Positions 7,382 through 64,000 of a DNA stretch of 64,000 bases are shown here, piece after piece. Origin of the DNA: Escherichia coli (lineage in GTDB: Bacteria > Pseudomonadota > Gammaproteobacteria > Enterobacterales > Enterobacteriaceae); NCBI RefSeq assembly GCF_003991155.1, contig NZ_CP031293.1. One strand, given 5' to 3'. The notes under the pieces are model-generated. The model ran no database searches. It was not told where the DNA came from and saw only the letters and a program-made list of their open reading frames with translations. The position numbers and the translations under genes are program-made. How positions within the stretch are numbered: position 1 is the stretch's first letter; every line of letters starts with the position of its first letter.

Positions 7382-7544
7382 TGTATACTCCTGTCAGGGG
7401 GTGTTCACCGCCGAGTGTGCGGCTTAAATGTGGTATAGATGTTAACTCACTCATAGAGATGGTGAATAGCAGTACCTTTGCTATACCACACTGAATATCT
7501 CATCTTTTCCGTCTTTTAAAACTTATTTATATGAAATTACTGAA

Positions 7545-8915: not shown

Positions 8916-8939
8916 ATAAAAACCTTACCAATAATAAAA

Positions 8940-9698
8940 TTATTTATGCGCAAACAATTGCATTAGTTTTGAGATTTTTCTGATAATGATAGCAATTTTC
9001 CAATTTACATTATGGTTTTTCATAACTTCTACAATTTCCTTTGTACTTGATATCGCGTTATCAATTCTGGTACTTTCCCCACCCAATCTCATCTTTACAA
9101 ATACTTGAGGAACATAAATAACTTTAATATCATCACGTTTCAAAATCCTGACCATCTGATCATAGTCTGCAGCAATCCTATAGGATAAATCAAAATATCC
9201 ATCGTCTTTATATAATTCCCTCCTCATATAGAAAGATGGATGCGGTGGTGCCCAGCCTAATGATAGCTTAGAACGTTTAAAAGGACCACTACGCCAGTAT
9301 CGTTTGATTATATCAGTTTGGTTTTTTTCGAAAAAAACCAAATCACCGTATACAACATCCGCTTTTGTCTCATGGAAACGGCTTACAATAGTTTCAATAA
9401 TATCAGGTCTTGCTAAAAGGTCATCAGAATGAACGAATCCAATAATATCTCCCGTAGATAAATTTATACCTTTATTTAAAGCATCATAGATACCGTTATC
9501 GCTTTCTGATAGACATTTGGTTACTCTTGTTGATACTTCGTTAATTAGTTTTAACGTATTATCTGTAGAACCACCATCAATAATTATATACTCTATATCT
9601 TTATAGGTTTGCAACTCTATTGACTCTAAAGTATCCCTTAAAGTCTTTTCACTATTATAAGTCACTGTAATAATACTGACTTTCATTTTAACATCCAA
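8940..9698 (-). CDS. Family-2 glycosyltransferase (WcaE-like), O-antigen cluster
   Basis: 252-aa ORF with GT2 motifs (VTYNSE..., DGGSTDNT, DNGIYDA, SDD); visibly AT-rich; alternative start 12 nt downstream (MKVSIITV). Confidence 0.7.
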   Translation of the reverse strand: MDVKMKVSIITVTYNSEKTLRDTLESIELQTYKDIEYIIIDGGSTDNTLKLINEVSTRVTKCLSESDNGIYDALNKGINLSTGDIIGFVHSDDLLARPDIIETIVSRFHETKADVVYGDLVFFEKNQTDIIKRYWRSGPFKRSKLSLGWAPPHPSFYMRRELYKDDGYFDLSYRIAADYDQMVRILKRDDIKVIYVPQVFVKMRLGGESTRIDNAISSTKEIVEVMKNHNVNWKIAIIIRKISKLMQLFAHK

Positions 9699-9769
9699 TA
9701 ATAATCATAATTAAATAACGTCAGTACAGCATTACGAATAATAATGTTGCATTAGTATCCAGCATCATT

Positions 9770-11170
9770 TTAGATTCTAACAACATCATCTTCATCCAAG
9801 TAGACACCTGAACGTACCTCAATAATCTCCAAAGGGATCTTTCCTGGATTCTCAATAAAATGAGGTACACCTATTGGTATATAAGTTGATTCATTTTCAG
9901 AAACAAGAAATATTTCATCTTCATAATGGACTTTTGCTGTTCCAGAAACAACAATCCAATGCTCAGTACGATGGTAATGAATCTGTTTAGCAGTTTTATG
10001 TCCAGGATGAATAACGACATGTTTAACCTCAAATCGAGATCCTTCCGCTATAGAGTCATGACTGCCCCATGGCCTAAATATTTCACGATGCTGCAGATAT
10101 TCCGTACGGTTATTAACCTTAAGTTTTTCTACAATATTTTTTACCTGTTGAACTTTATCTTTATGCGCAACGAGAATAGCATCTTTAGTTTCAACAACTA
10201 CTAAATCTTTAACTCCTACTACACCAATTAATCTATGTTGTGAGTAAAGATAACTGTCAGAAGAATCATGAATTAATACATCTCCTCTAATTGCATTTCC
10301 ACTTTTATCTTTTCTGCTAATTTCCCATAATGCAGACCAAGAACCAACATCGCTCCAGTGGGCATTTAATGGAACTACCACAGCCTCTGTTGTTTTCTCC
10401 ATAACAGCGTAATCAATGGATTCTTCAGGGCAACAACTAAATGAGTCATTATCTATACGGATAAAATCAAGATCTTGTGTAGAGGACTTCAATGCTTGTT
10501 GGCATATTTTTAGTATGTCTGGTCTAAATTTATTCAACTCATCAATAAACACAGAAGCCCTAAACATGAATATTCCACTATTCCAAAGATAATCTCCATC
10601 TTCAAGATATTTTTTGGCCACATCTAGCTCAGGCTTTTCAACAAAAGCAGAAACTTTAAAACCATATTCATTTAAATTTTCTCCGGTTTTTATGTAGCCA
10701 TATCCAGTTTCGGGTTTGGTTGGCACAATACCAAAAGTTACCAGCTTACCTTCCTCTGCAAATTCTTTTGCAGCCAATATTGACGATATAAAGCGCTTTT
10801 GGTCTTGTATTTCATGATCGGCTGCTAGTACAAGCAGTATTGGATCCTCACCTGATGAAATCGCTTTAAGAGCAGCAAGCGCAACTGCGGGGGCTGTATT
10901 ACGACCTATCGGCTCTAGTAAAATGCCACTATTCGCTAAATTTACATTACGCATTTGTTCTGCAACGATAAAACGATGAACTTCATTACAAATAACCAGA
11001 GCAGGACGATGTTCAACCCCTTCAAGCCTTCTTAAGGTCTCTTGTAGCATAGTCAAACGACTAGTTAACGATAGGAATTGCTTCGGATATAGTGTTCGAG
11101 AAAGTGGCCACAATCTAGTTCCAGAACCACCGGCCATTACAACAGGAAGTAGCATATAAATAACCTTCAC
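9770..11170 (-). CDS. manC: Mannose-1-phosphate guanylyltransferase (O-antigen locus copy)
   Basis: 466-aa ORF with nucleotidyltransferase motif (MAGGSGTRLWPLSR) and C-terminal cupin region; diverged paralogue of cpsB; true start may be the Met 15 nt downstream. Confidence 0.85.
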   Translation of the reverse strand: MKVIYMLLPVVMAGGSGTRLWPLSRTLYPKQFLSLTSRLTMLQETLRRLEGVEHRPALVICNEVHRFIVAEQMRNVNLANSGILLEPIGRNTAPAVALAALKAISSGEDPILLVLAADHEIQDQKRFISSILAAKEFAEEGKLVTFGIVPTKPETGYGYIKTGENLNEYGFKVSAFVEKPELDVAKKYLEDGDYLWNSGIFMFRASVFIDELNKFRPDILKICQQALKSSTQDLDFIRIDNDSFSCCPEESIDYAVMEKTTEAVVVPLNAHWSDVGSWSALWEISRKDKSGNAIRGDVLIHDSSDSYLYSQHRLIGVVGVKDLVVVETKDAILVAHKDKVQQVKNIVEKLKVNNRTEYLQHREIFRPWGSHDSIAEGSRFEVKHVVIHPGHKTAKQIHYHRTEHWIVVSGTAKVHYEDEIFLVSENESTYIPIGVPHFIENPGKIPLEIIEVRSGVYLDEDDVVRI

Positions 11171-11622
11171 TTAAAATAATTTTTTGTGTACTGATGAACT
11201 GAGGAATTAGCTAACAATTCGGCTATATCGAACCAATTGTAAGTACTATGTTGTAGTGTTGGATAGTTAATTTGATGTGGCATCAAACTAATCTCATATC
11301 CGTGTACGACATAATGAGTTGAAAAACAAGTCCCAGAAAAATTGTCGCTGTAGAAATGTTCATAAATCCCAAGAAATTTTGCTTCATTAATGCTAATTTG
11401 AACACCCAATTCTTCTAAAGTAACTCTTTTGAATGCGTTCTCGAAAGACTCATCTTTAAGAATCCGTCCCCCCGGCACAAACCAATAATTTTGTGCTGGA
11501 CGATTAAGGCGCTGACCAAGCAGCGCCTTACCATCTTCGTTTCTTATAATAAGGTCTATCGAGATTAGTGGAGTATGTTCAACTATTGATTTAAATAACT
11601 CTGTTTCTAATCTCTTGTTCAA
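11167..11622 (-). CDS. gmm: GDP-mannose mannosyl hydrolase (Nudix), O-antigen locus copy
   Basis: 151-aa ORF, paralogue of the colanic acid gmm/wcaH (shared YWFVPGGR motif); sits between fcl and manC. Confidence 0.8.
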   Translation of the reverse strand: MNKRLETELFKSIVEHTPLISIDLIIRNEDGKALLGQRLNRPAQNYWFVPGGRILKDESFENAFKRVTLEELGVQISINEAKFLGIYEHFYSDNFSGTCFSTHYVVHGYEISLMPHQINYPTLQHSTYNWFDIAELLANSSVHQYTKNYFK

Positions 11623-11624
11623 TA

Positions 11625-12590
11625 TTAACTCCTAAATGAGTCAAGATTATTTATAAACCATTTATATGTTAATTCTAGTCCTTGTTTTAAATTATAACGA
11701 TATTTCCAACCCAAATTCTCAAGGCGTGTAACATCCATAAGTTTACGAGGCGAACCATCTGGTTTTGTTATATCAAAAACAATTTTTCCATCATAGCCAA
11801 CAACTAAAGCCATTGTTTCTGCCATTTCACGTATGGAACAATCAACACCAGTACCTACGTTAATATGAGATAACATTGGTTGAGTATTTTTTTTATAAAT
11901 TTCATCATCAAGCTCCATCACATATACTGATGCAGCGGCCATATCATCAACATATAAAAACTCGCGTTTTGGAGTTCCCGTTCCCCAGACAACCACTTCA
12001 TTTAAACCAAGTTCCTTTGCTTCATGAAAACGCCGCATAAGCGCTGGAATTACATGTGAGTTATTGGGATGAAAATTATCATTCATACCATATAAGTTAG
12101 TAGGCATTACACTGCGATAATCACATCCATATTGGCGATTATAAGATTCACATAGCTTTATACCTGCTATTTTGGAAATAGCATAAGGCTCATTAGTAGG
12201 CTCAAGAGTTCCCGTCAAAAGTGCAGATTCTTTCATTGGCTGTTCTGCAAACTTTGGATAGATACAACTTGACCCTAAGAATAATAGTTTCTTTATGCCC
12301 GCTTTGTAAGATGAGTGAATAATATTGCTTTCAATAAGAAGGTTCTGATAAATAAATTCAGCTGGAAAAGTGTTATTAGCATGAATTCCTCCTACTTTTG
12401 CTGCTGCAAGGTAAACCTGATCTATTCTCTCTTGCTCAAAAAAACATTCAACATCCTTTTGAACTGTCAAATCGAGTTCTTTGTGAGTTTTGACAATTAA
12501 CTCAACATCATTACGTGCTAATAATTGACGACAAATAGCAGAACCAACCATCCCACGATGTCCAGCCACAAAAATTCGCTTCTTGGTCAT
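11625..12590 (-). CDS. fcl: GDP-L-fucose synthase (O-antigen locus copy)
   Basis: 321-aa ORF ([19 protein letters not shown]...) clearly paralogous to the fcl at 34970..35935. Confidence 0.9.
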
Positions 12591-12593
12591 ACT

Positions 12594-13715
12594 TTAACGC
12601 TCCAAAGAGACTGCCACGTCAAAACCATGGCTTTTAAGAAGTGCATGCTGTTTAGCTTTTTCTAAATCACTAGCCACCATTTCTGCACACATTTCTTCAA
12701 CTGTAATCTCTGGCTCCCAACCCAAGACATTTTTTGCTTTTGTTGGATCACCAAGAAGAGTTTCAACTTCTGCTGGTCGAAAATAACGAGGGTCAACGCG
12801 AACAATAACATCACCAATATTAACACCAACGGCGCAATCTGATGTTTTATTTACAACAAATGCAATCTCATCAACACCAGTACCGGAAAACTCAAGTTCA
12901 AGTCCAACTTCTTTAGCAGACATACGGACAAATTCACGTACAGATATTTGTTTGCCGGTGGCAATAACAAAGTCTTCTGGCTGGTCTTGTTGAAGCATCA
13001 TCCATTGCATACGAACATAATCTTTCGCATGCCCCCAATCGCGTAAAGAATCCATGTTGCCAAGATATAAGCATTTTTCTATTCCCTGCGATATATTAGC
13101 TATAGCACGTGTGATTTTACGTGTTACAAACGTTTCCCCACGACGTGGGGATTCATGATTGAACAAAATACCGTTACATGCATACATTCCATAAGACTCA
13201 CGATAGTTTACAGTGATCCAATATGCATACAGTTTAGCTACGGCATAAGGTGAACGAGGATAGAACGGCGTTGTCTCTTTTTGTGGAACTTCCTGAACTA
13301 ATCCATACAATTCAGAGGTTGACGCCTGATAAAATCGGGTTTTTTTTTCTAATCCCAAAAAACGAATAGCTTCCAATAATCGTAAAGTACCTATAGCATC
13401 AACATCAGCTGTATATTCTGGGGATTCGAAGGAAACAGCTACGTGACTCATTGCGCCAAGATTATAAACTTCATCAGGTTGAACTTCAGATAATATCCGA
13501 GTCAAATTAGAAGTATCTGTTAAATCACCATAATGAAGTTGTAATTTTAAATTACGATGGTGTGGGTCTTGATATATATGATCAATACGGTCAGTATTAA
13601 ACAAGGAAGATCGACGTTTTATTCCATGAACCTCATAGCCTTTTTTAAGCAGAAATTCTGCCAAGTAGGAACCATCTTGCCCGGTAATTCCTGTAATTAA
13701 AGCTTTCTTACACAT
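12594..13715 (-). CDS. gmd: GDP-mannose 4,6-dehydratase (O-antigen locus copy)
   Basis: 373-aa ORF ([17 protein letters not shown]...) highly similar to the colanic acid gmd at 35938..37059. Confidence 0.95.
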
Positions 13716-13725
13716 AAATAACCTC

Positions 13726-14733
13726 TCAAAACTTAGATAGTGATTTATATAGATTATATGTTTCGGAGAAACACTTCCCCCATGAAAATTTATTAGATTG
13801 CGCTAATCCTTTATTTTTTAATTCATTAGCGTTAGCTTCTACACTTAATAAAGCTGAGAATAAACTTTCAATTGATACTTCTTCGACTAAAATCGCACTA
13901 TCCCCCACAACCTCGGGTATTGATGATCTATTTACGGCTATCACAGGACAGCCAGTTCGCATAGCCTCAAGCAAGGGAATTCCAAACCCTTCATATTCTG
14001 AAGGATAGATTAAGCAATAAGCCGAATTATATAATATATTTAGTTTTTCATTTGATACCTTCCCTAAGTACTGGAATCTTTCTGGAAGATATTCAGATAG
14101 TAACTTCATTTCTGCTTTATTTAAACCACCTCCGCCGACTATTTTAAGATTAGTATCAAAAAGTTTAGAAATGGCTTTAACTGCAAGCTCAAAATTTTTA
14201 TATCCTGAACGAGCACCGACAAAAAGCACAAAATTTTCTTTTTCTAGATTTAAGTGTCTATAATCTTCCGATACACCATTATGAATAACATGTATCTTTT
14301 TTTCATCAACCTTAAAGAAATTAATTAAATCCTTGGCTGTATTATTAGAGACACAAATGATTGCATCGCTATGTTTCACAGCCCATCTTTTTTGTAAGCT
14401 ATGAACATTGCGCCGAAGTCCTTTCATATACAATTCATATGTGAAATCGTGGACCGTGGTCACAACCGCATATTCCCCATCTTTCGGAACCCGATAATAT
14501 GTAGAATGAAATATACTGTAATCTGAATCACTTTTTAATGCTTCAAAACATCTATATCGTTCTAAAAACCGGCATGGCCGATGGAGATCATCATTGTGAT
14601 TTTCATTTTTATCATTAAATTGAATGAACTTGTATTCGTCATTTTTTAATCTCTTAATGATTTCTTCAAAGTATACAGTGATACCACCATATGATTGTAA
14701 ACTTTTCACAATCCCATCATATAATATTTTCAT
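13726..14733 (-). CDS. Family-4 (GT-B) glycosyltransferase, O-antigen cluster
   Basis: 335-aa ORF with C-terminal [13 protein letters not shown] motif typical of GT4 enzymes; AT-rich. Confidence 0.7.
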
Positions 14734-14801
14734 TTTTTGTTTTCATATATATAGATAACAATACAGTAAGCAATGAAATGGATGATTATAATTGTTTCAA
14801 T

Positions 14802-15818
14802 TTACTCTTTATATCCATTTGGATTCATTGTTTGCCATCTCCATGCATCTTCCACCATATTATTAAGAGTCCTTTTAGCAACCCAACTTAGCTGCTCGTT
14901 TGCTAAGGAAGGATCGGACCAACATTCAGCCACATCTCCATTTCGCTCAGAAACGATACGGAAAGGTATATCGCGTCCTGTTTCCAGTTTAAAAGCGTCG
15001 ATGATATCTAACACACTATAACCTTGACCAGTGCCTAAATTAAAAACTTTAAGCCCCTGGTTTCTATTGAGATTTTTTAAAGCGGCAAGATGCCCCTCAA
15101 CTAAATCGACTACATGGATATAATCTCTTACACCTGTTCCATCTTTTGTCATATATTTATTACCAAAAACATTTAGATAGGGTAATTTTCCAATTGCGAC
15201 TTGCGCAACATAGGGAAACAGGTTATTAGGAGTTCCTAAAGGATCTTCTCCAATTAATCCAGTCTCATGAGCACCTACAGGATTAAAATATCTTAGTATT
15301 GTGATATTTGCGTCGCTATTCGCGTTACAAAAATCACGCAATATATGTTCCACCATAAACTTTGAACGACCGTACGGATTGATCACCTCACCGACAGGGT
15401 GTTTTTCAGATATTGGAACATAATGAGGATTGCCATAGACAGTAGCAGACGAACTAAAAATTAGATTAGAAATATTCGCTTTCTGCATTTCATCAAGTAA
15501 TATTAGAGTCCCCAAAAGATTTGTGTCGTAATATTCTAATGGTTTTTTAATGGACTCGTTAACAGATTTTAAACCCGCAAAATGCATTACAGTAGAAACA
15601 TTATATTTTGAAAAGATATTTTTTAATATATGTCTATCTCTAATATCACCACGTAATTTTTTTATCTTAGATAAGCAAATTTCCTCTACTCGTTCTAGAG
15701 ATTTTGGAGAGGAATTGCAATAATTATCTAGCGATATAACATCATATCCATTTTGCAATAAAGTTAATATAGCATGTGAGCCAATATAGCCAGCCCCACC
15801 AGTCACAAGTATGCTCAT
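14802..15818 (-). CDS. UDP-hexose / UDP-N-acetylhexosamine 4-epimerase (GalE family)
   Basis: 338-aa ORF with N-terminal TGGAGYIGSH Rossmann motif and overall GalE-like layout; embedded in the O-antigen cluster; substrate not determinable from sequence. Confidence 0.85.
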   Translation of the reverse strand: MSILVTGGAGYIGSHAILTLLQNGYDVISLDNYCNSSPKSLERVEEICLSKIKKLRGDIRDRHILKNIFSKYNVSTVMHFAGLKSVNESIKKPLEYYDTNLLGTLILLDEMQKANISNLIFSSSATVYGNPHYVPISEKHPVGEVINPYGRSKFMVEHILRDFCNANSDANITILRYFNPVGAHETGLIGEDPLGTPNNLFPYVAQVAIGKLPYLNVFGNKYMTKDGTGVRDYIHVVDLVEGHLAALKNLNRNQGLKVFNLGTGQGYSVLDIIDAFKLETGRDIPFRIVSERNGDVAECWSDPSLANEQLSWVAKRTLNNMVEDAWRWQTMNPNGYKE

Positions 15819-15838
15819 ACTTTAATAGCTCCAATACC

Positions 15839-16906
15839 TTAATTTTCTTGACTATTGGCTCGATTGATCAAACTCATCCACTGAGCACTAACTATTTCTT
15901 CTGTATAATGTCTATTCACGAATAGGAATCCTGCATTTCCGTGTTCGGTTCGTTTAACATTATCTTCAAAGTAAGTTAGTTTTTCCTGAAATTCAATTTG
16001 AGATTGACACACAAATCCGCCACCCGATGAAGAAATCACGCTACTTGTCCCTCCAGATATATCCATTGAAATTACAGGTAATCCGTAGGACATAGCTTCA
16101 AGTATTGTAACAGGAAAACATTCAAAGTATGAACCGGATACAAAAACATCACTTTTTGCCAAAAAAACATCTGTGTTTAAACTCGGTCCATGAAAGTGTA
16201 TTTGGTTGTTATTCTTATATTTAGATTTGAGATACTCCAGCTCTTGACCACCTCCTACAATGTGTAAAACATACTTTTTTGTAGACGGGTGATTTATTAC
16301 TGCATTAATTAACCTTTCAACTCCTTTATCTTTAACAATCCGACCAATATAAATCAAATCAAGAGTTTCTTTTCCTTGATGTATGCGCTTATATTTTTGC
16401 GTTTTGATTGAATTTGGTATAATTACAACCCTTTTACAAAAAGTAAACTTATCTTTTTCCTTGTGAGAATTACAAACTACTACAGCTTTTTTATTAAGAG
16501 ACAAAAGAAATTTAAATACTTTTCTCCAAAAAATACTATTCTTGTCAAATGGATAATGTTCCCAGCAAATAATTTTATTCTTATTATACCGAAAAAAACC
16601 AATCAATAACAATAATGATGATGTAGCTATATCCGTGGAAATTATTAATTCAAGGTCTTTACTTTTGGCACTCAAAAAAAACAAATATTTAATGTAAAAC
16701 CTTAATTTGCTTTCTTCATATGCAGTATTGTCTTGGAATAAGTAGGTTTTCCGATTATCTTCTCTAACTTGTATCTCTTGTGCGTTTATTGCTGAAAAAC
16801 ATCTCACTTGTAGGCTGTTTTTAGTTAATATATCAATTAGATTTTCAACTGCTTTCTCAGTGCCACCTATTTTATTTTCATACAGCTTAAAGACTCCAAT
16901 GGACAT
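15839..16906 (-). CDS. Family-4 (GT-B) glycosyltransferase, O-antigen cluster
   Basis: 355-aa ORF with GT4-type C-terminal motif (FECFPVTILEAMSYGLPVIS). Confidence 0.7.
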   Translation of the reverse strand: MSIGVFKLYENKIGGTEKAVENLIDILTKNSLQVRCFSAINAQEIQVREDNRKTYLFQDNTAYEESKLRFYIKYLFFLSAKSKDLELIISTDIATSSLLLLIGFFRYNKNKIICWEHYPFDKNSIFWRKVFKFLLSLNKKAVVVCNSHKEKDKFTFCKRVVIIPNSIKTQKYKRIHQGKETLDLIYIGRIVKDKGVERLINAVINHPSTKKYVLHIVGGGQELEYLKSKYKNNNQIHFHGPSLNTDVFLAKSDVFVSGSYFECFPVTILEAMSYGLPVISMDISGGTSSVISSSGGGFVCQSQIEFQEKLTYFEDNVKRTEHGNAGFLFVNRHYTEEIVSAQWMSLINRANSQEN

Positions 16907-16907
16907 T

Positions 16908-18143
16908 TTATTGACTCACTCTTATATATTCTGCTGATTTAACTTCTTTATTGAATAGGAATAATGAGGGCTTATACAATATATCGCACCAAGACACATA
17001 AATAATATCTTTACCCATATTTGCCTGTGCCAAATTTATGATTGAACATGCGGTAATGAGTATTAAGAAGATCAGATGCTTACATAGTTTGCTAATTTTA
17101 TTAATATCGTAGGAGAAAAATATATAACTATATAATAACACCCAGAAAATGGAAAATCGATAAAATAAATCAGGCGATAACGATAAAAGGCATATCAGCA
17201 AAAGAAGTAAACTGCAAAAATTTTTGATTTGTGACTCTTGCCTCGTCATTTTTTTATTAAATAAAATTAAATAGATAAAAGTAAAAATAAAAAACACTGA
17301 CGGTAATATGATCTTATTCAAGATATATTCATTAGTGCTCAGCAAGCTATTGCTTATGCCTATGGTTACAGAGTCCATATATTCGGGAAAGTAAAAACCT
17401 AAGCTTTCCAATAATGGCCTAATCAATTGAAATAGCAAAGAAGATATTAACCCATCATGGTTAAGGATTAGAACTAATATTATTAAATACAATATTGTTT
17501 TGTTAAGTCTTATTAATTTGCTAACAAAAAAAACACCTAGCAATAGTATTGCGCTGGGATGAATACAACATGAAATAATTGCAGAGAATATAATTTTTTG
17601 TGACTTATACCTATTATTTTCACTGGTGAAATACTGTATAATCATATAAAGCATAATACTAAATGCAAGATATTGCCGCAATGAACTAGCTATAGCAAAA
17701 AATGGGATTACGCTTATTAGAATATATAAATATATACATCTATGAGATAATTCCGGATTGTATTTTTTAATGTAATTAACATATATATTAAAATAAAAAA
17801 TATATGATAAAAATGTTGAAAAAAAAGGTAAAAATTCTTTTTTTATTCCTAAAGATTTAAATAAATAAATAACAGTATTTATTGTAATATATCTATTGTC
17901 ACTATTTTCAAAAACTTTGTTTAGTGATGTTTGACTAACATATAAATATGTTTCATAATGCCTAGTCAAATCCCAATTTTCATAAGGTATTAACAAAAAT
18001 GCTAGTACCCCTAGCATAAATGAACATACATAAACACTCCATCTGGCCCCATTAATCATTTCAATCATTGCTAATAATAAAGCAAGAGGCAAATAAATTA
18101 TTGAAATAAATGAAGCACTAATTTTTATGTTTCTATTAATCAT
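16908..18143 (-). CDS. wzy: O-antigen polymerase
   Basis: 411-aa very hydrophobic, multi-pass, AT-rich ORF with low similarity to anything else in the window, between glycosyltransferases; typical Wzy signature. Confidence 0.65.
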   Translation of the reverse strand: MINRNIKISASFISIIYLPLALLLAMIEMINGARWSVYVCSFMLGVLAFLLIPYENWDLTRHYETYLYVSQTSLNKVFENSDNRYITINTVIYLFKSLGIKKEFLPFFSTFLSYIFYFNIYVNYIKKYNPELSHRCIYLYILISVIPFFAIASSLRQYLAFSIMLYMIIQYFTSENNRYKSQKIIFSAIISCCIHPSAILLLGVFFVSKLIRLNKTILYLIILVLILNHDGLISSLLFQLIRPLLESLGFYFPEYMDSVTIGISNSLLSTNEYILNKIILPSVFFIFTFIYLILFNKKMTRQESQIKNFCSLLLLLICLLSLSPDLFYRFSIFWVLLYSYIFFSYDINKISKLCKHLIFLILITACSIINLAQANMGKDIIYVSWCDILYKPSLFLFNKEVKSAEYIRVSQ

Positions 18144-18865
18144 CTTTTTATAACTTTTCTCATAAATAGGTAAATATCTGCTAACGCCGCATATAATTTC
18201 CCGTTTCTTTTCTTTCGGATTTGTCTCGCTTCCTCCAATGCTAATTTTACATTTTTAGCGCTAAGGCCGGCATTTCTCATCGAAGAGATATTTTTATCAA
18301 TATAATGAAAGATATAACCTTGTTTCTTCAATTTTAGCAAAAGATCATAATCAGAAGCAATTTTATAGCTAGTATTAAATAAATTTTCTCTGTGGATATC
18401 TTTTCTAATAAATGTGGCCGGATGGCTTAAATTCATATCTATATGTAGTTTCCAGTCTTTAGGCCTCCGGACCTGAATAACATCCAAGCTATCAGCCTCT
18501 ACCAAAGACATATTTCCATAAATAACATCATATTTATTTTCTTTCATTACTTTTATTACTTGACATAATACATCTTTATTATAAAAATCATCAGCGTTTA
18601 TAAATCCTATATAATTTCCAGATGCTTTTAACACACCTTTATTCATTGCATCATATATACCATTATCATTTTCAGAAATGATATATGAAATTTCATTTTT
18701 GTAAGAATTAACAATATTTAGAGTATTATCCGTTGATGCACCATCAATTATAATATATTCAATGTCATCATTGCAGTTTTGTGATAAGACACTTTTTATA
18801 GTATCTTCGATATACATTTCGCCATTGTACACAACGGTAACTATTGTTAAAGTTGGTTTATTCAT
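18140..18865 (-). CDS. Family-2 glycosyltransferase (WcaE-like), O-antigen cluster
   Basis: 241-aa ORF with GT2 motifs ([28 protein letters not shown]); paralogous to the GT2 at 8940..9698 and to wcaE. Confidence 0.7.
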   Translation of the reverse strand: MNKPTLTIVTVVYNGEMYIEDTIKSVLSQNCNDDIEYIIIDGASTDNTLNIVNSYKNEISYIISENDNGIYDAMNKGVLKASGNYIGFINADDFYNKDVLCQVIKVMKENKYDVIYGNMSLVEADSLDVIQVRRPKDWKLHIDMNLSHPATFIRKDIHRENLFNTSYKIASDYDLLLKLKKQGYIFHYIDKNISSMRNAGLSAKNVKLALEEARQIRKKRNGKLYAALADIYLFMRKVIKR

Positions 18866-18873
18866 TGTTAGCC

Positions 18874-20109
18874 CTACAATAAATTTAAATTATTTAATTT
18901 ATTTGTTTTCTTAATCAAAAAGTAAAATCTCGCCATTATTATAAACTCAGTTGAAATAACTCCTATTGCTGTACCAACTCCTGAGTATTCATTAGTCAAA
19001 TAAGTAATTATCAGTAGGCCTATTAATCCACTGGTAGTAATAATTTTTGTAAATTCTTTTTTCATACCAATAGGGATCATTACTAAAATTGCAATATAAT
19101 TACTTACCGTAACTATTGCTGGAGTAAAAGCTAAAACTTTGAGTATTTCTAAAGATTCATGATACGTTTTTCCATACATGATTAAAATTATATCGTCTGC
19201 AAAAAAGTAAAGAAATATGGAAAGTACGAACATCAGTGAAAATTGCCATCGAAACACTTTCCTGGCTAATAATAGTCCATCGTCATGATTATCCTTCATT
19301 ATATAAGTTACTCTAGGAAAAACAGCTTGGGTTATAGGACCAATAACGCCTTGTAGTGCAAGCCTAATTTTATCTGCAGCGATAAAATATCCCACTGCAG
19401 TTGTTCCTGATAATGCACCTAATATTATTGTTGAACTAGTAGTATAAAGGCTTATTGCTGCAGAGGAAATGAAGTAATGCCATCCATCATAAATTAACTC
19501 TTTCATTTTGGATAAGGATGGTGGTACCCATATTATTTTTTTAAGAGAAAATAAAAAATATGTAGATATTATACCTGCAATAACTGTTATTGATGATTGT
19601 ATTGTTATCGCTATACCAAGATCCTTTTCACTTTTAACCAATAAAAATGTTAAACATAGTGTAAGTAAGCGTGCGGAAAACATACTTATCGCTATTCCTA
19701 ACATTTTTTCCAGCCCTTGAAAAAACCATACTGGATATATTAAATTTCCTACGACAGATATGTATGCAAGAATGATAAATTTAATTTGGTAATCAATGAT
19801 ATTCAATTCCGAAATTAAATAAATAATTAACAAACCAAGAGATGCTGCAATTATTTTGATAAACGTTACATTCCAAAAAACTTTACTTATGGAATCAGTA
19901 TTTTCCCTTGATATTGATATGATTTTGGGCGCTGAGTAGTTAAATCCGTAATCAATAAATAATATAAAATATTGGACCACAGCAAAACTATACCCATATA
20001 TCCCGTATCCTGTAGGTTCAAGGATCCTGACAAGATAAGGCAGTGTGACCAATGGAAATATATAATTGCCACCTTGAACGCTTAATAAATAGATGATGTT
20101 TTTTAACAT
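18874..20109 (-). CDS. wzx: O-antigen flippase
   Basis: 411-aa polytopic membrane ORF with Wzx/MOP-family-like N-terminus; first gene downstream of the JUMPstart/ops element. Confidence 0.7.
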   Translation of the reverse strand: MLKNIIYLLSVQGGNYIFPLVTLPYLVRILEPTGYGIYGYSFAVVQYFILFIDYGFNYSAPKIISISRENTDSISKVFWNVTFIKIIAASLGLLIIYLISELNIIDYQIKFIILAYISVVGNLIYPVWFFQGLEKMLGIAISMFSARLLTLCLTFLLVKSEKDLGIAITIQSSITVIAGIISTYFLFSLKKIIWVPPSLSKMKELIYDGWHYFISSAAISLYTTSSTIILGALSGTTAVGYFIAADKIRLALQGVIGPITQAVFPRVTYIMKDNHDDGLLLARKVFRWQFSLMFVLSIFLYFFADDIILIMYGKTYHESLEILKVLAFTPAIVTVSNYIAILVMIPIGMKKEFTKIITTSGLIGLLIITYLTNEYSGVGTAIGVISTEFIIMARFYFLIKKTNKLNNLNLL

Positions 20110-20189
20110 AACGAGCCTACGTACTTAACAAGTCTTATTTTGCACGATAGTTTACAATTTGTTAAGTAATATGGGATAAACATTTAATT

Positions 20190-20201
20190 CACGCTACCGC
20201 C
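20190..20201 (-). promoter_or_regulatory. ops element (GGCGGTAGCGTG on the coding strand) within a JUMPstart-like leader of the O-antigen operon
   Basis: Exact reverse complement cacgctaccgcc seen on the + strand in the galF-wzx intergenic region. Confidence 0.8.
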
Positions 20202-20481
20202 CCTGGCTCAACAGCTACCAGCGTACTGCATGCATGTCCTAGTTGTACCTAGCATTAACCGTTATGGTTAGTTCGAAAAGCTTAACTCTGAACGTTTTAC
20301 CAAATCGCTTCAGAGATGGAGAAAATCTCAGCCTCCCACAATAAATGCCTATTGAAAAGTTATTGTTACTCATATTTAGAACGGTATAAAGAAAGAATGA
20401 GGCAATGAGTACAATTAGCCCCACGAATCCTCACCGCCGTTATAATTTTCTTATCAACCGTTACATCCGGTCAGATTTTCA

Positions 20482-46647: not shown

Positions 46648-48231
46648 ATGGAATGGATTGCCGATCCGTCTATCTGGGCTGGATTAATCACGCTGATTGT
46701 GATCGAACTGGTCCTCGGCATTGATAACCTGGTCTTTATTGCCATCCTCGCCGAAAAACTACCGCCGAAGCAGCGCGACCGCGCACGGGTTACCGGGCTG
46801 CTGCTGGCGATGTTAATGCGCCTGTTACTGCTGGCGTCAATCTCCTGGCTGGTCACCCTGACTCAACCGCTGTTCAGCTTCCGCTCGTTTACCTTTAGCG
46901 CCCGCGACTTAATCATGCTGTTTGGTGGTTTCTTCCTGCTGTTCAAAGCCACGATGGAGCTGAACGAACGGCTGGAAGGGAAAGACAGCAATAACCCCAC
47001 GCAACGCAAAGGTGCGAAGTTCTGGGGGGTGGTGACACAAATTGTGGTACTGGACGCCATCTTCTCACTCGACTCGGTGATTACCGCCGTCGGGATGGTC
47101 GACCATTTACTGGTCATGATGGCCGCCGTCGTTATCGCTATCAGCCTGATGTTGATGGCCAGCAAGCCGTTAACGCAATTTGTTAACAGTCACCCGACGA
47201 TCGTTATTCTCTGCTTAAGCTTCCTGTTGATGATTGGCTTTAGCCTGGTGGCAGAAGGTTTCGGCTTCGTCATTCCGAAAGGCTACCTGTACGCTGCTAT
47301 TGGTTTCTCGGTGATGATCGAGGCGCTCAATCAGTTGGCTATCTTTAACCGGCGACGTTTTCTTTCCGCTAACCAGACGCTGCGCCAGCGAACTACCGAA
47401 GCGGTAATGCGCCTGTTAAGCGGGCAAAAAGAAGATGCGGAACTGGATGCCGAAACCGCGTCTATGCTGGTGGATCATGATAATCAGCAAATCTTTAATC
47501 CGCAGGAACGGCGGATGATTGAGCGGGTACTTAATCTTAACCAGCGTACCGTCAGCAGCATTATGACGTCGCGCCACGATATTGAGCATATCGATCTCAA
47601 CGCACCGGAAGAAGAAATCCGCCAGTTGCTGGAGCGAAATCAGCACACGCGACTGGTGGTTACTGATGGCGATGACGCGGAAGATTTGCTCGGTGTTGTT
47701 CACGTTATCGACCTGTTACAACAGTCACTGCGCGGCGAACCGCTCAACCTGCGGGTGTTGATTCGCCAGCCGCTGGTGTTCCCGGAAACCTTGCCGTTGT
47801 TACCTGCCCTGGAGCAGTTCCGTAATGCCCGCACACACTTTGCTTTTGTAGTGGATGAGTTTGGCTCGGTGGAAGGGATTGTGACATTAAGTGACGTCAC
47901 AGAAACCATTGCCGGTAACTTACCGAATGAAGTGGAAGAGATCGACGCCCGCCATGATATTCAGAAGAATGCCGACGGTTCCTGGACGGCGAATGGTCAT
48001 ATGCCGCTGGAAGATCTGGTGCAATATGTGCCGCTGCCGCTGGATGAAAAACGTGAATATCACACCATTGCCGGGCTATTGATGGAATATTTGCAGCGTA
48101 TTCCAAAACCTGGCGAAGAAGTTCAGGTGGGGGATTATTTGCTTAAAACGTTGCAGGTGGAAAGCCATCGCGTGCAGAAGGTGCAAATTATTCCGCTACG
48201 TAAGGATGGCGAGATGGAGTACGAAGTGTGA
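46648..48231 (+). CDS. yegH: Inner-membrane TerC-family protein with C-terminal CBS pair and CorC/HlyC transporter-associated domain
   Basis: 527 aa from [10 protein letters not shown]; hydrophobic N-terminal half, CBS-like C-terminal half. Confidence 0.9.
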
Positions 48232-48305
48232 TAAAACATCAAATGCGCAGGTTCAAACTGCGCATTTGATTTATACAAAATTTAGTATAATCTAAGGATG
48301 GAGTA

Positions 48306-48644
48306 ATGAGAAAAAAGCTGGCTTTTCTTGATACCAGTCTTGACGATTTACGCGCATTTCCAGAATCGTCTCGACAGGAAATTGGCTATCAACTCGACAG
48401 GATCCAACAAGGGTTAAACCCATACGACTGGAAACCTTTTTCAACTATCGGCCCTGGTGTGCGAGAGATTCGTACTCGCGATGCTGATGGGATCTATCGC
48501 GTCATGTATATCGCAAAATTTGAAGAAGCGGTTTACGTATTGCATTGTTTTCAAAAGAAAACACAGACTACCAGTCAATCGGATGTTGATTTAGCCAAAC
48601 GACGCTATAAAGAACTTGTTCAGGAGCGGAAAAATGAAAATTGA
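48306..48644 (+). CDS. Putative type II toxin, RelE/ParE superfamily (HigB / Gp49-like killer protein)
   Basis: 112-aa ORF with characteristic ...GxGVxExRxRxxxGxYRVxY...VYVLHCFQKKTQTTSQSDVDLAKRR... signature; preceded by -10-like tataat and Shine-Dalgarno aaggatgg; overlaps the downstream HTH gene. Confidence 0.7.
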   Translation: MRKKLAFLDTSLDDLRAFPESSRQEIGYQLDRIQQGLNPYDWKPFSTIGPGVREIRTRDADGIYRVMYIAKFEEAVYVLHCFQKKTQTTSQSDVDLAKRRYKELVQERKNEN

Positions 48645-48924
48645 AACCTTTGATAGTGTGTGGGATGCGGTGAGTGACACCCCTGAACAAGCGGAAAATA
48701 TGCGGATCCGTGCCGAACTTGTAACGATCATTAATAACTGGATTGAACAACAAGGGTTTAGCCAGGCTCAGGCAGCGTCTGCTTTAGGGGTCACTCAACC
48801 TCGCATATCTGAACTTGCCAGAGGTAAGATCCAGATCTTTAGTATCGATAAATTGATCACCATGATGGCTCATGCAGGATTGCATATTCAACGTATTGAA
48901 ATTCAATATCCACATGCTGCTTAG
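48634..48924 (+). CDS. Putative HTH (XRE-family) antitoxin, HigA-like
   Basis: ~96-aa ORF from MKIETFD (alternative start at 48616); helix-turn-helix core (QAQAASALGVTQPRISELARGK); start overlaps the toxin stop (aaATGAaaattga). Confidence 0.7.
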   Translation: MKIETFDSVWDAVSDTPEQAENMRIRAELVTIINNWIEQQGFSQAQAASALGVTQPRISELARGKIQIFSIDKLITMMAHAGLHIQRIEIQYPHAA

Positions 48925-48935
48925 TGCTATAAACA

Positions 48936-48965
48936 CAGATGGCGACAAATTGACGCCGCCATCTG
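48936..48965. terminator. Possible shared hairpin terminator between the antitoxin gene and convergent asmA
   Basis: Inverted repeat cagatggcg...cgccatctg; flanking T/A runs are weak. Confidence 0.35.
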
Positions 48966-48976
48966 CATAACTTGTC

Positions 48977-50830
48977 TTACATCTTCTCCAGCAACTTCTT
49001 CACATCTTTGCCATTGCGGGAATCTTTATTCCGCTCGGCCCAGTCATTCAGGCGACGTTTCGCTTCATCCTGTAGATGTTTGCGCAGTAACTGATCCACT
49101 TGCAGGCTGTAATTGAGTTGCTGCCAGTTGCCATAAACCCGCAGCGGTACTGGCGTTTCTTTGAGGAAATCAATCAGTTTGCTTTCTCCGTTCCAGCCAC
49201 CAATCACACGAATGTCAAACTGGGTGTCGCAGGTTTGATCTGCCAGATTCAACATGCCTTCCCCTGTCAGCGCCAGCACTGGCGATTGACCTTGCATGTC
49301 GTTTAACGTCACGACGCCATCCTTCAACGTCAAATCGGTGGTAAAGCGGTCAAGACGCGTTACGTTATCGAAGTTTTCAGCGGCCTTCACATCACCACCA
49401 TTACGTTCTACCGCTTGCTGAATCATCTGCTGGAAGTTCATCCCTTCCATGCGCGTGTCGGTCATTTCGACATGTGCCTGTCCTTGCCAGTTATGGCGGA
49501 ATGCGTCGGCATCTATGTCAGCACCGGAGAAATCACCAGCCAGTGACATCTTTCCGGTCAACGAAATCGGATAGTTAAACGCCTTCAGAATGGTACCAAT
49601 CTCAACGTTTTCCAGCCGTGGCTGGAAGTTTATCCGCGGATTTATTGATGTCGCGTCCAGCGTGCCCGGCAGCGAAACCTGTCCACCGTTAAGCTTGCCC
49701 TGCAGTTGAGTAATTTCCAGCAAACCCGACTTGTTGGTCATTTGCGTGGCAACGTCTGTAAAATTCATTCCGCGCCAGCGCACGTTACTGGCCTGCAACA
49801 AAATATCAGCCGTAAAGCCATGCAATCCCTGATAGGCCGGTTCATCAATACGCGAAGAAATGACCGGGCGCGGCAACGTGGATTGGCTCTGCCCTTGCTG
49901 CGCGGCACCGTTTTCACCGTTCGCTGTTTCTTTAAGCGGGATGAGGTTGTCAAGATTCAGTTGCGGGAATTGCAGTCTCAACTGCCATTCCGGTTTCTCT
50001 GTCAACGTGACCTGTGCTTGCCCGCTCAGCGTACTGTCATTGGCGGTCAAACTAATTTGGTTAAATGAAAGGCGTTTATGTGACTCCTGCCACTGGGCCT
50101 GGAAACTCCCCTGCCCCTGAATACCTTGTTTTGGTAAATCGGCACCCTGCAACTGCCAGTTAATTTGTTCAATAGCCGCCGTTAAATCATGCGGATAATC
50201 AGAAGCATCTACCGTACCGTTAAGGGATATCGTGAGGTCGCGCTGATCGCGATTAACCCGCCCGGAGAACTCAAATGAGCCACGATGTTGGGGATCTTGT
50301 TCCATTTGCAGGCGGATATTGCGGATTGTCACCTGCTCGTCATCTTCATGCTGGAACACCAGCACGCTGTCCGCCATCTTAAGACTGGATATATCAAACG
50401 ACCATCCGCGATCGTCTGACAGATCCGGCAAGGTATTGTCGCGCGGTGCAACCGGAGCGTCTTCACTGCGCACCGCTTCCGTCTGCGGCGTCAGTTGGAT
50501 CACAGCCCCTTTTAGCATCACCTGCTTAACGCTCAGTTGATGACTCAGTAGTGGTAAAAGCGCCACGTCCAGACGCATGTTGTCGGCGCGAACCAGTGGC
50601 TGGCTCGCGCCCTGGGCGGTGAGAGACATTCGCCCGGAGAGGATACTAAGCTGCGGCCAGACGTGCCAACGCAGTGGCCCGTCGAGCTGCAATTGATAAC
50701 CGCTACGTGCAGCAACTTGCTTGACCATATAGTCGCGGAAATCATTCGGATTCACCAGCAACACTAACGCAGATAACCCGGCCACCAGCACGACCAGGAG
50801 TATCATCAGCGTCGTCAGAAATCGTCTCAT
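48977..50830 (-). CDS. asmA: Outer-membrane assembly / AsmA-family protein
   Basis: 617-aa ORF with N-terminal signal anchor (MRRFLTTLMILLVVLVAGLSALVL). Confidence 0.9.
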   Translation of the reverse strand: MRRFLTTLMILLVVLVAGLSALVLLVNPNDFRDYMVKQVAARSGYQLQLDGPLRWHVWPQLSILSGRMSLTAQGASQPLVRADNMRLDVALLPLLSHQLSVKQVMLKGAVIQLTPQTEAVRSEDAPVAPRDNTLPDLSDDRGWSFDISSLKMADSVLVFQHEDDEQVTIRNIRLQMEQDPQHRGSFEFSGRVNRDQRDLTISLNGTVDASDYPHDLTAAIEQINWQLQGADLPKQGIQGQGSFQAQWQESHKRLSFNQISLTANDSTLSGQAQVTLTEKPEWQLRLQFPQLNLDNLIPLKETANGENGAAQQGQSQSTLPRPVISSRIDEPAYQGLHGFTADILLQASNVRWRGMNFTDVATQMTNKSGLLEITQLQGKLNGGQVSLPGTLDATSINPRINFQPRLENVEIGTILKAFNYPISLTGKMSLAGDFSGADIDADAFRHNWQGQAHVEMTDTRMEGMNFQQMIQQAVERNGGDVKAAENFDNVTRLDRFTTDLTLKDGVVTLNDMQGQSPVLALTGEGMLNLADQTCDTQFDIRVIGGWNGESKLIDFLKETPVPLRVYGNWQQLNYSLQVDQLLRKHLQDEAKRRLNDWAERNKDSRNGKDVKKLLEKM

Positions 50831-61549: not shown

Positions 61550-61730
61550 AAGAAATCCTTTCTTAGAGAATTATTGAGGTCCGGTATCATACCGATTGCA
61601 ATAATGAAATAAGAGCAAACGAAGAAACTTTCAGAATTAGGCCCGGCGGCGCAGAAAATTTTGCTATTCGCCTCGCAAGAACGGAGAGCCGTCGATTGAC
61701 ACTAAGGGCGGAGTGACATAATTTCAGGAG

Positions 61731-61858
61731 TGAGGGTTAGGGAGAGGTTTCCCCCTCCCCCTGGTGTTCTTAGTAAGCCTGGAAGCTAATCACTAAGAGT
61801 ATCACCAGTATGATGACGTGCTTCATCATAACCCTTTCCTTATTAAAAGTCCTCTTCT
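61731..61858 (+). ncRNA. Sib-family antisense sRNA, copy 1 (approximate ends)
   Basis: -35 ttgaca (61696..61701), 17-nt spacer, -10 taattt; transcript fully overlaps the ibs ORF on the opposite strand; ends at GC hairpin plus tttcccgttt. Confidence 0.5.
61770..61829 (-). CDS. ibsA: Ibs-family type I toxin peptide, copy 1 (MMKHVIILVILLVISFQAY)
   Basis: 19-codon hydrophobic ORF antisense to the repeat unit; closely resembles IbsA as remembered. Confidence 0.7.
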   Translation of the reverse strand: MMKHVIILVILLVISFQAY

Positions 61859-62064
61859 CCGGGAGAGGGTTTCCCGTTTCAGCGTCCCGCTGAAATCGTC
61901 GGCTTACCTCCTTTCGCCCTGAATGCAGTCTATCGCTAACGCGTGAACAAAATAGTTTCCTCTGTGATTATTGCGTAACGTCTCGCAAAGAATATTTGCT
62001 GGCAGGATCGCAGACTACAAAGCCTGCGGATTGACAATCTGATTGTGAAGGCATACTTTCAGGA

Positions 62065-62207
62065 GTGAGGGTAGAGCGGGGTTTCCCCCGCCCTGGTAGT
62101 CTTAGTAAGCGGGGAAGCTTATGACTAAGAGCACCACGATGATGAGTATCTTCATCATGACCCTTTCCTTATTTAAGGCCCCTTCCTCGGGAGGGGCTTT
62201 CCCGTTT
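62065..62207 (+). ncRNA. Sib-family antisense sRNA, copy 2 (approximate ends)
   Basis: ttgaca -35 at 62031..62036, tacttt -10; terminator hairpin gccccttcctcgggaggggc plus tttcccgttt. Confidence 0.5.
62102..62158 (-). CDS. Ibs-family type I toxin peptide, copy 2 (MMKILIIVVLLVISFPAY)
   Basis: 18-codon hydrophobic ORF at the equivalent place in repeat unit 2. Confidence 0.7.
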   Translation of the reverse strand: MMKILIIVVLLVISFPAY

Positions 62208-62392
62208 CAGCGTCCCGCTGAAATCGTCGGCCTACCTCCTTTTGCCCTGAATACAGTCTATCGCTAACGCGTGAACAAAATAGTTTCCTCTGTGATTATT
62301 GCGTAACGTCTCGCAAAGAATATTTGCTGGCAGGATCGCAGACTACAAAGCCTGCGGATTGACAATCTGATTGTGAAGGCATACTTTCAGGA

Positions 62393-62535
62393 GTGAGGGT
62401 AGAGCGGGGTTTCCCCCGCCCTGGTAGTCTTAGTAAGCGGGGAAGCTTATGACTAAGAGCACCACGATGATGAGTATCTTCATCATGACCCTTTCCTTAT
62501 TTAAGGCCCCTTCCTCGGGAGGGGCTTTCCCGTTT
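62393..62535 (+). ncRNA. Sib-family antisense sRNA, copy 3 (approximate ends)
   Basis: Same promoter and terminator architecture as copy 2. Confidence 0.5.
62430..62486 (-). CDS. Ibs-family type I toxin peptide, copy 3 (MMKILIIVVLLVISFPAY)
   Basis: 18-codon ORF identical in protein to copy 2. Confidence 0.7.
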   Translation of the reverse strand: MMKILIIVVLLVISFPAY

Positions 62536-62720
62536 CAGCGTCCCGCTGAAATCGTCGGCCTACCTCCTTTTGCCCTGAATACAGTCTATCGCTAACGCGT
62601 GAACAAAATAGTTTCCCCTGTGATTATTGCGTAACGACTCGCAAAGAATATTTGCTGGCAGGATCGCAGACTACAAAGCCTGCGGATTGACAATCTGATT
62701 GTGAAGGCATACTTTCAGGA

Positions 62721-62863
62721 GTGAGGGTAGAGCGGGGTTTCCCCCGCCCTGGTAGTCTTAGTAAGCCGGGAAGCTTATGACTAAGAGCACCACGATGATG
62801 ATCCACTTCATCATGACCCTTTCCTTATTTAAGGCCCCTTCCTCGGGAGGGGCTTTCCCGTTT
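62721..62863 (+). ncRNA. Sib-family antisense sRNA, copy 4 (approximate ends)
   Basis: Same promoter and terminator architecture. Confidence 0.5.
62758..62814 (-). CDS. Ibs-family type I toxin peptide, copy 4 (MMKWIIIVVLLVISFPAY)
   Basis: 18-codon ORF; differs from copies 2 and 3 at positions 4-5. Confidence 0.65.
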   Translation of the reverse strand: MMKWIIIVVLLVISFPAY

Positions 62864-63048
62864 CAGCGTCCCGCTGAAATCATCGGCTTACCTCCTTTCG
62901 CCCTGAATGCAGTCTATCGCTGACTTGCGGATAAAATAGTTTCACATGTGATTATTGCGTGACGTCTCGCAAAGAATATTTGCTGGCAGGATCGCAGACT
63001 GCAAAGCCTGCGGATTGACAATCGGACCGTGAAGGCATACTTTCAGGA

Positions 63049-63191
63049 GTGAGGGTAGAGCGGGGTTTCCCCCGCCCTGGTAGTCTTAGTATGCTGGGTA
63101 GCTAATCACTAAGAGCACCACGATGATGAGTAGCTTCATCATGACCCTTTCCTTATTTAAGGCCCCTTCCTCGGGAGGGGCTTTCCCGTTT
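63049..63191 (+). ncRNA. Sib-family antisense sRNA, copy 5 (approximate ends)
   Basis: ttgaca at 63015..63020; terminator plus tttcccgttt near 63183. Confidence 0.5.
63086..63142 (-). CDS. Ibs-family type I toxin peptide, copy 5 (MMKLLIIVVLLVISYPAY)
   Basis: 18-codon ORF; variant C-terminal region. Confidence 0.65.
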   Translation of the reverse strand: MMKLLIIVVLLVISYPAY

Positions 63192-63420
63192 CAGCGTCCC
63201 GCTGAAATCATCGGCTTACCTCCTTTCGCCCTGAATGCAGTCTATCGCTAACGCGTAGATAAAATAGTTTCCTGTGTTATTACTGGATGCGTGCTCGCAA
63301 AAGTGCCTGCCATTCAGACGATTCCCGACAGTGTTTCATAATTCCTCCATTTTTCTCCCTTATTGGCTGGCTACACTAGTATCATTCCGCGAAACGTTTC
63401 AGGAAGAGAAACTCTTAACG

Positions 63421-64000
63421 ATGAAAGGCAGTTATAAATCCCGTTGGGTAATCGTAATCGTGGTGGTTATCGCCGCCATCGCCGCATTCTGGTTCTGGCA
63501 AGGCCGCAATGACTCCCGGAGTGCAGCCTCAGGGGCGACGAAACAAGCGCAGCAATCGCCAGCGGGTGGTCGCCGTGGTATGCGTGCCGGTCCATTAGCC
63601 CCGGTTCAGGCAGCGACCGCCGTAGAACAAGCTGTGCCACGTTATCTCACCGGGCTTGGCACCATTACCGCCGCTAATACTGTTACGGTGCGCAGCCGCG
63701 TGGACGGTCAACTGATGGCGTTGCATTTCCAGGAAGGCCAGCAGGTCAAAGCTGGCGATTTACTGGCAGAAATTGACCCCAGCCAGTTCAAAGTTGCATT
63801 AGCACAAGCCCAGGGCCAACTGGCAAAAGATAAAGCCACGCTTGCCAACGCCCGCCGTGACCTGGCGCGTTATCAACAACTGGTAAAAACCAATCTCGTA
63901 TCTCGTCAGGAACTGGATGCCCAACAAGCGCTGGTCAGTGAAACCGAAGGTACCATTAAGGCTGATGAAGCAAGCGTCGCCAGCGCGCAATTGCAACTCG
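63421..64000 (+). CDS. mdtA: Multidrug efflux RND membrane-fusion protein, N-terminal part (3' end lies outside the window)
   Basis: ATG at 63421 followed by [30 protein letters not shown]...; open to the window end; not in the ORF track because no stop is reached. Confidence 0.85.

Follow-up and report, generated by a model that had tools for sequence, protein, structure and literature searches.

The toxin-antitoxin pair Tad-Ata, composed of a COG4679 toxin and a COG5606 antitoxin with a helix-turn-helix (HTH) domain, was first found on the Paracoccus aminophilus plasmid pAMI2. The gp49-type family has been defined as Tad-Ata, i.e. COG4679-COG5606 (PMC2701414), and is listed with ribosome-dependent mRNA degradation as its activity and with the gene order toxin-antitoxin (PMC11980606). 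The pairing of Gp49 with HTH_37 has been described in transposons of the Tn3 family (PMC7157771), and surveys of the toxin-antitoxin content of E. coli already count Gp49 groups (PMC10790755). Mutational data are available for HigB1 of M. tuberculosis (HigB-TAC, Rv1955), where toxicity is inhibited by alanine changes at K58, R68, R77, K95 and K99 and strongly affected by N73A, whereas E66A and Q98A show a partial or mild effect only and F93 was not mutated; K95 has been equated with R81 of RelE (PMC9098466). The Gp49 proteins HigB2 and HigB3 of the same organism are devoid of several of the HigB1 pocket residues and displayed no toxicity in an M. smegmatis or in-vitro translation assay (PMC9098466).

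The 64,000-nucleotide stretch of E. coli DNA analyzed here (the window) harbors a pair of this type at positions 48232-48976, which are the exact intergenic space between yegH and asmA, 745 bp from stop codon to stop codon. Two small overlapping genes on the + strand, toxin first and HTH antitoxin second, had been proposed for this space by a first-pass annotation made from the sequence, and the same ORFs with the same ends are already annotated in RefSeq as 'type II toxin-antitoxin system RelE/ParE family toxin' and 'helix-turn-helix domain-containing protein'. The convergent arrangement of the flanking genes was likewise described correctly. The exact toxin and antitoxin proteins occur in more than 1,000 contigs of public collections under generic names only, and in a literature search on the yegH-asmA toxin-antitoxin locus no paper and no experiment on the pair was found. 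On the basis of sequence comparison and predicted structures the locus is probably a type II toxin-antitoxin operon on the chromosome that belongs to the Gp49/HTH_37 (Tad-Ata, COG4679-COG5606) group, in which the toxin is encoded first and would act as a ribosome-dependent mRNase. The features of the locus are compiled in Table 1.

Table 1. Positions of genes and predicted signals in and around the yegH-asmA intergenic space (window numbering).
Feature	Position	Strand	Remarks
yegH (TerC family), left flank	46648-48231	+	K-12 homology stops at the yegH stop codon
Hairpin with 13-bp stem, just 3' of the yegH stop codon	48238-48270		terminator-like on the - strand (scan); T-tail on the + strand weak
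Palindrome TTATACAAAA/TTTAGTATAA	48271-48290		core ATAC-N8-GTAT at 48273-48288; overlaps the -10 hexamer; one mismatch in the right half
-10 hexamer TATAAT	48286-48291	+	perfect; poor -35
Shine-Dalgarno region AAGGATGGAG	48294-48303	+	ahead of the toxin ATG
Toxin gene, 112 aa, Gp49 (PF05973), RelE fold	48306-48644	+	conserved E54, R56, R65, F82, K84, Q87
Two copies of CTCGACAGGA	48370-48379 and 48393-48402	+	inside the toxin gene
Antitoxin gene, 96 aa	48634-48924	+	N-terminal F6-x-S-V-W-D-A motif, then XRE-type HTH_37 domain
Hairpin with 9-bp stem, between antitoxin stop and asmA stop	48936-48965		better T-tail on the asmA strand
asmA, right flank	48977-50830	-	K-12 homology restarts at the asmA stop codon

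The two genes had been thought to be joined by an ATGA overlap. However, they overlap by 11 nt (48634-48644), and the TGA within the ATGA of the antitoxin is not in the toxin frame. An overlap of 4 nt is the usual state of the family (67 of 80 relatives), and in the nearest relative, from Pantoea, the A-run contains one extra A and the toxin ends at ATGA. A -10 hexamer and a Shine-Dalgarno sequence belonging to the toxin gene, both noticed at first reading, are indeed present, while a scan for consensus promoters reported no + strand promoter for the pair; a good -35 element is missing because its position is occupied by the hairpin on the yegH side. This hairpin is probably the terminator of yegH, and the hairpin between the antitoxin and asmA is a probable terminator as well. 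A search of positions 48150-49050 for RNA families gave nothing credible, the sole match being STnc40 with an E-value of 0.81.

The Gp49/RelE-ParE signature recognized in the toxin at first reading is borne out by a match to the Pfam family Gp49 with an E-value of 1.5e-29, in which residues 13-102 cover model positions 1-90 of 90, whereas the Pfam search returned no match to the HigB families and none to ParE (PF05016). The score against the NCBIfam toxin model upstrm_HI1419 is far below its cut-off (24.8 versus 62.85 bits). The structure predicted from a 27-sequence alignment has a pLDDT of 95.5 and displays the order β-α-α-β-β-β-β-long α, i.e. the RelE (BECR) arrangement with a long C-terminal helix. 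The best matches among solved folds are to M. tuberculosis HigB1 (PDB codes 7awk and 7nbu, TM 0.65-0.69), both in its free form and in its ribosome-bound form with cspA mRNA, followed by RelE, V. cholerae HigB2, S. pneumoniae HigB and ParE2.

In a profile alignment the toxin residues E54, R56, R65, F82, K84 and Q87 correspond to E66, R68, R77, F93, K95 and Q98 of HigB1, so that six of the nine residues of the HigB1 pocket (K58, E66, R68, N73, R77, F93, K95, Q98 and K99) are identical in the toxin. Across the alignment of 27 relatives all six show little or no variation, within the block YVLHCFQKKTQ. As to the remaining three, K99 of HigB1 aligns with T88, a position where most relatives possess a lysine, N73 aligns with D61, and K58 aligns with S46, with K43 nearby, in a loop where the alignment is uncertain. 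The three differences matter because HigB2 and HigB3, which were not toxic in the assays cited above, are also without several pocket residues. HigB1 is similar to the toxin as its best structural match, in its long C-terminal helix and in six pocket residues, but it shares only 19-20% sequence identity, differs at the positions of T88 and D61, and is accompanied by a SecB-like chaperone gene which the pair described here does not have.

The C-terminal part of the antitoxin is an HTH domain of the XRE type (Pfam HTH_37, PF13744, E-value 4.9e-22). Neither this match nor that of the toxin to Gp49 can be ascribed to chance. Its closest solved relative is NE_1354 of Nitrosomonas europaea (PDB code 2a6c; E-value 3e-14, 41% identity, rmsd 1.2 Å), a structural-genomics entry without a described partner or function. 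Upstream of this domain the N-terminal segment F6-x-S8-V9-W10-D11-A12 is 85-96% conserved in 72 relatives. Toxin and antitoxin were also modelled as one chain, connected by a linker of 30 residues and with the alignment paired by locus. In this fused model, which has a pTM of 0.84, the linker is disordered; residues 3-6 of the antitoxin adopt a strand and residues 9-13 a short helical conformation, the block-mean pLDDT being at least 93 over this segment. We read the model as the antitoxin N-terminus folding onto the toxin, the contact being inferred from the confidence values. An N-terminal segment that folds onto the toxin has been described for other antitoxins of the HigA type.

Compared by family, the pair resembles Tad-Ata in its two Pfam families, the toxin-first order, the overlapping genes and the small protein sizes, but it is located at one chromosomal site among housekeeping genes without a transposon or plasmid context. 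The Pfam family takes its name from gp49-gp48 of phage N15, the toxin of which shares 32% identity over 95 residues (E-value 1e-16) and is encoded in the same gene order. N15 gp48 was considered as a homologue of the antitoxin and rejected, as it yields no alignment at all with the 96-aa protein. The HigBA systems of Acinetobacter baumannii and S. pneumoniae also contain a Gp49 domain and are of the reverse gene order, and the segment LHHFMKRTQKT of S. pneumoniae HigB aligns with LHCFQKKTQTT of the toxin; in sequence they are nevertheless distant, with E-values of 0.019 for a single-sequence and 1.4e-5 for a profile comparison. The canonical HigBA systems (Proteus Rts1, K-12 ygjN-ygjM, V. cholerae HigBA1 and HigBA2) share the toxin-first operon, the RelE-fold toxin and the XRE-type HTH antitoxin, but belong to the Pfam families PF05015, PF09907 and PF06296, and the antitoxin described here scores only 16.3 bits against the HigA equivalog TIGR02607, which has a cut-off of 47.7. 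The label HigB/HigA-like given at first reading thus holds for the layout of the genes but not for the proteins, which are Gp49 and HTH_37 and remain far under the NCBIfam cut-off for HigA. The conditions under which that reading was to be abandoned were looked at, and what was found is a strong match to the RelE/ParE superfamily and a pair that is absent from K-12 and not universal in E. coli. The pair as such has already been catalogued within a known type II family, the gene order and likely mechanism of which have already been described.

One genome per species was scanned, and the best 80 loci from other species, with toxin identities of 57-71%, were compared. A homologue of the antitoxin is located directly downstream of the toxin in all 80 loci, which stem from Alpha-, Beta- and Gammaproteobacteria, Acidobacteria and a Mycobacterium. 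The palindrome overlapping the -10 hexamer in E. coli has a family form, TATACA-N6-TGTATA, which lies over the -10 element and is common to most relatives (consensus among the related loci TATACAAAATTTTGTATAA). In 49 of 79 related loci the exact motif ATAC-N8-GTAT lies just before the start of the toxin gene, as opposed to 4 strand-wise matches, thus about 2 sites given that the motif is palindromic, in the 505 kb of these loci outside this position. In the whole window only two such palindrome sites exist, one of which is that at 48271-48290, and in relatives such as that from Pantoea the palindrome is situated between a TTGCAC -35 and a TATAAT element. Since both its place and its shape are as expected for the binding of an HTH dimer, the palindrome is a candidate operator, and it is likely to be the predicted autoregulatory operator of the antitoxin.

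In most relatives the operator and the -10 element end 8-12 nt before the start codon, so that the toxin mRNAs of these relatives may carry little or no leader. With 17 nt the leader of the E. coli allele is longer, and it includes a Shine-Dalgarno sequence. The M. abscessus prophage phiGD20-1 (L090:1489-2069) encodes a toxin that is 56% identical to that of E. coli, with an HTH gene directly downstream. This toxin occurs in a dozen M. abscessus prophage records, and its identity is unusually high for a comparison of Actinobacteria with Enterobacteria.

The distribution within the species was assessed in 5,426 complete E. coli genomes. A match to the spacer is present in 910 of them, 792 of which contain the full 745 bp (14.6%) and 118 a part of it; the copy number per genome is one with a single exception (highest number 2), and every copy inspected is located between yegH and asmA. 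The carriers include O157:H7, O55:H7, APEC O18 and NCTC86. The K-12 spacer comprises 273 bp without similarity to the toxin-antitoxin spacer, homology breaks at both stop codons, and a search for traces of the pair in it gave none, the best short match having an E-value of 0.59. A spacer of the K-12 type, matching over at least 80% of the query, is found in 3,819 genomes. Because the whole spacer is replaced, the locus represents an allelic replacement and not a simple insertion. Accordingly, two statements of the first-pass annotation stand only in part: the K-12 gap, described there as empty, contains no gene but does contain unrelated non-coding DNA, and the pair is strain-variable as was supposed, whereas its description as an insertion is unsupported.

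Several observations concern the surroundings of the pair. The toxin-antitoxin spacer is 100% identical to that of NCTC86, and the flanks are 96-98% identical. The gnd-galF O-antigen cluster at window positions ~7450-20420 does not align with NCTC86 (O15) except for a cpsG/manB-like segment at 7583-8917; the pair is located ~27 kb from this O-antigen recombination hot spot. In the yegL-mdtA interval (window positions 61717-64000) the ibs/sib type I toxin-antitoxin repeat is present in several copies in tandem, and one NCTC86 ibs/sib repeat unit gives five overlapping matches in the window with 85-94% identity.

The G+C content of the pair is 42-44%, compared to 50-55% in the flanks. The closest relative outside E. 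coli among the best 80 loci of the one-genome-per-species scan is 71% identical and stems from Pantoea, and relatives of 70-74% identity reside on conjugative plasmids of Erwinia and Pantoea beside psiA and parB-like genes. No Escherichia, Salmonella, Citrobacter or other enteric genus is found among these 80 loci, where the sampling of one genome per species still allows for a polymorphic presence in Escherichia, Salmonella and Citrobacter. Taken together, the low G+C content, the distant plasmid-borne relatives and the absence from other enteric genera indicate that the E. coli pair was horizontally acquired. Mobile copies on plasmids of E. coli itself were considered in view of 'plasmid' records with 97-98% identical toxins and were rejected for the two of three records that were inspected (H109 being the third): these are chromosomal segments, as asmA, dcd and udk are present and in one of them yegH as well.

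All 118 partial matches are devoid of the 5' part of the spacer; its first 243 bp are present in exactly the 792 full-length genomes, and none of the 5,426 genomes retains the 5' part of the toxin without the remainder. As judged from a spread sample, nearly all of the partial matches are due to a 5' replacement, in which an element of 389 bp, a relative of the K-12 spacer, takes the place of positions 1-243, so that the promoter and the toxin N-terminus are gone while the antitoxin ORF is intact. Examples are ChlosBP-23-1 and, via an identical spacer element, ABU 83972. In WB61 (L004:1230-1604) only the last 104 bp of the spacer are left, a relic which derives from the 5'-replaced type by two deletions; the second of these also removes the 3' end of yegH, which RefSeq annotates as a pseudogene. 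A different lesion is found in strains where 23 bp between the two copies of CTCGACAGGA are deleted, leading to a frameshifted toxin and an intact antitoxin. This was checked in two genomes, AR202.2 and H154 (220-bp span), and identity bands suggest that about 61 genomes have the deletion. Finally, in one strain IS1 is inserted in codon 77 of the toxin and the antitoxin is again intact.

At least three independent lesions have therefore struck the toxin, the antitoxin ORF is intact in the examined example of each, and no lesion removing the antitoxin alone was seen among the examined alleles. An apparently intact pair is present in ~730 genomes (13%), and about a fifth of the carriers have a broken toxin. 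Several E. coli lineages are losing the pair, toxin first. Some of the pair-less alleles arose by loss, since relics of the pair remain in them, and the sequence of the K-12 spacer, a deletion derivative of the 389-bp element, makes it plausible that the K-12 state has arisen by loss too.

The 389-bp element corresponds to L003:812-1200 in ChlosBP-23-1, and the element of ABU 83972 was recognized by an identical spacer segment of 181 bp. The K-12 spacer (L002:5487-5759) consists of the same element with an internal deletion of ~170 bp plus a REP. About 90 bp of the element occur 2-3 times per E. coli genome, and its segment L003:913-1056 matches the Rfam TwoAYGGAY RNA motif weakly (31.5 bits versus a gathering threshold of 43, E-value 0.004).

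A comparison of seven intact E. coli alleles revealed 17 variable sites. The antitoxin accounts for 8 synonymous substitutions and a single conservative one (I90V), a count that clearly points to purifying selection on this protein, and the stretch of promoter and operator shows no variation. In the toxin, 1 change is synonymous and 3 are non-synonymous (I69V, V94I and A97D), tiny numbers that are too small to be decisive and would fit neutrality, weak constraint or a different recombination history of the left half. Of the variable sites, 4 fall in promoter and toxin (the left 402 bp) and 13 in antitoxin and terminator (the right 343 bp), an uneven distribution which may reflect a recombination boundary within the operon.

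With fair confidence the pair can be regarded as a Gp49/HTH_37 module which is working or has recently been working, with a toxin that is likely a ribosome-dependent mRNase and an antitoxin that is likely an autorepressor. In the proposed mechanism the toxin would enter the ribosomal A site and cut mRNA, whereby translation would stop. The conserved N-terminal segment of the antitoxin would fold onto the toxin and block it, and the dimer of its C-terminal HTH domain would bind the palindrome and repress the operon. Once the antitoxin is lost or degraded by proteases, the toxin would be free. In E. coli the module would be a variant of the yegH-asmA spacer which differs between strains, was acquired horizontally and is being lost toxin-first in several lineages.

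A first rival reading accepts the pair as real but takes the toxin to be weak or inactive like HigB2 and HigB3, the locus then being an autoregulated HTH regulator or a decaying relic. The threonine and aspartate in place of the K99 and N73 equivalents, the 3:1 ratio of non-synonymous to synonymous changes, which fits neutrality, and the proportion of carriers with a broken toxin agree with this reading, which we still consider improbable: the ORF is apparently intact in ~730 genomes, six core residues are retained, among them the equivalent of K95, a threonine at position 88 is also found in relatives with an intact partner antitoxin, the antitoxin is subject to strong purifying selection, and every lesion seen hits the toxin first, as an active toxin predicts. 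[quoted passage not shown] However, these chains reach a TM of only 0.43-0.60 and thus fall behind HigB1, Pfam yields no ParE match, the residues of the RNase type are conserved, and the gp49 family is listed under ribosome-dependent mRNA degradation (PMC11980606), so that a ParE-type activity has to be regarded as exceedingly unlikely.

The preferred reading of a ribosome-dependent mRNase is compatible with a main role in anti-phage abortive infection or in anti-addiction directed at relatives borne by plasmids or phages, as distinct from selfish persistence. Relatives in prophages (M. abscessus, 56%; N15, 32%) and on conjugative plasmids, strong PHROG matches and the patchy strain distribution, typical of defence genes, are in favor of such a role, but PADLOC 2.0 gave no convincing match (toxin 0.0024 and antitoxin 6.9e-5 in E-value, both short and low-scoring), and the pair has yegH, asmA and the colanic acid genes as neighbors rather than a defence island; we hold this role to be unlikely, though less so than an inactive toxin. 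A more speculative reading, to which we attach the same low likelihood as to the inactive toxin, is that the pair is an old E. coli allele kept as a polymorphism beside the O-antigen/colanic-acid hot spot for conditional protection, be it abortive infection of phage or anti-addiction against Tad-Ata relatives on plasmids and in prophages, and that most lineages have replaced it stepwise and toxin-first with the TwoAYGGAY-like repeat element. If this were true, the 'empty' spacer of K-12 would be a derived state.

The significance of a probable Gp49/HTH_37 operon at this site goes little beyond bookkeeping, and in hundreds of genomes the toxin already bears a RefSeq label. Two modest additions are made to what has been described. 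For the family, the candidate operator TATACA-N6-TGTATA is common to the subfamily across phyla. For E. coli, the alleles of the yegH-asmA spacer form a natural series which records the toxin-first decay of a chromosomal toxin-antitoxin module, and K-12, being without the pair, offers a clean host for toxicity testing.
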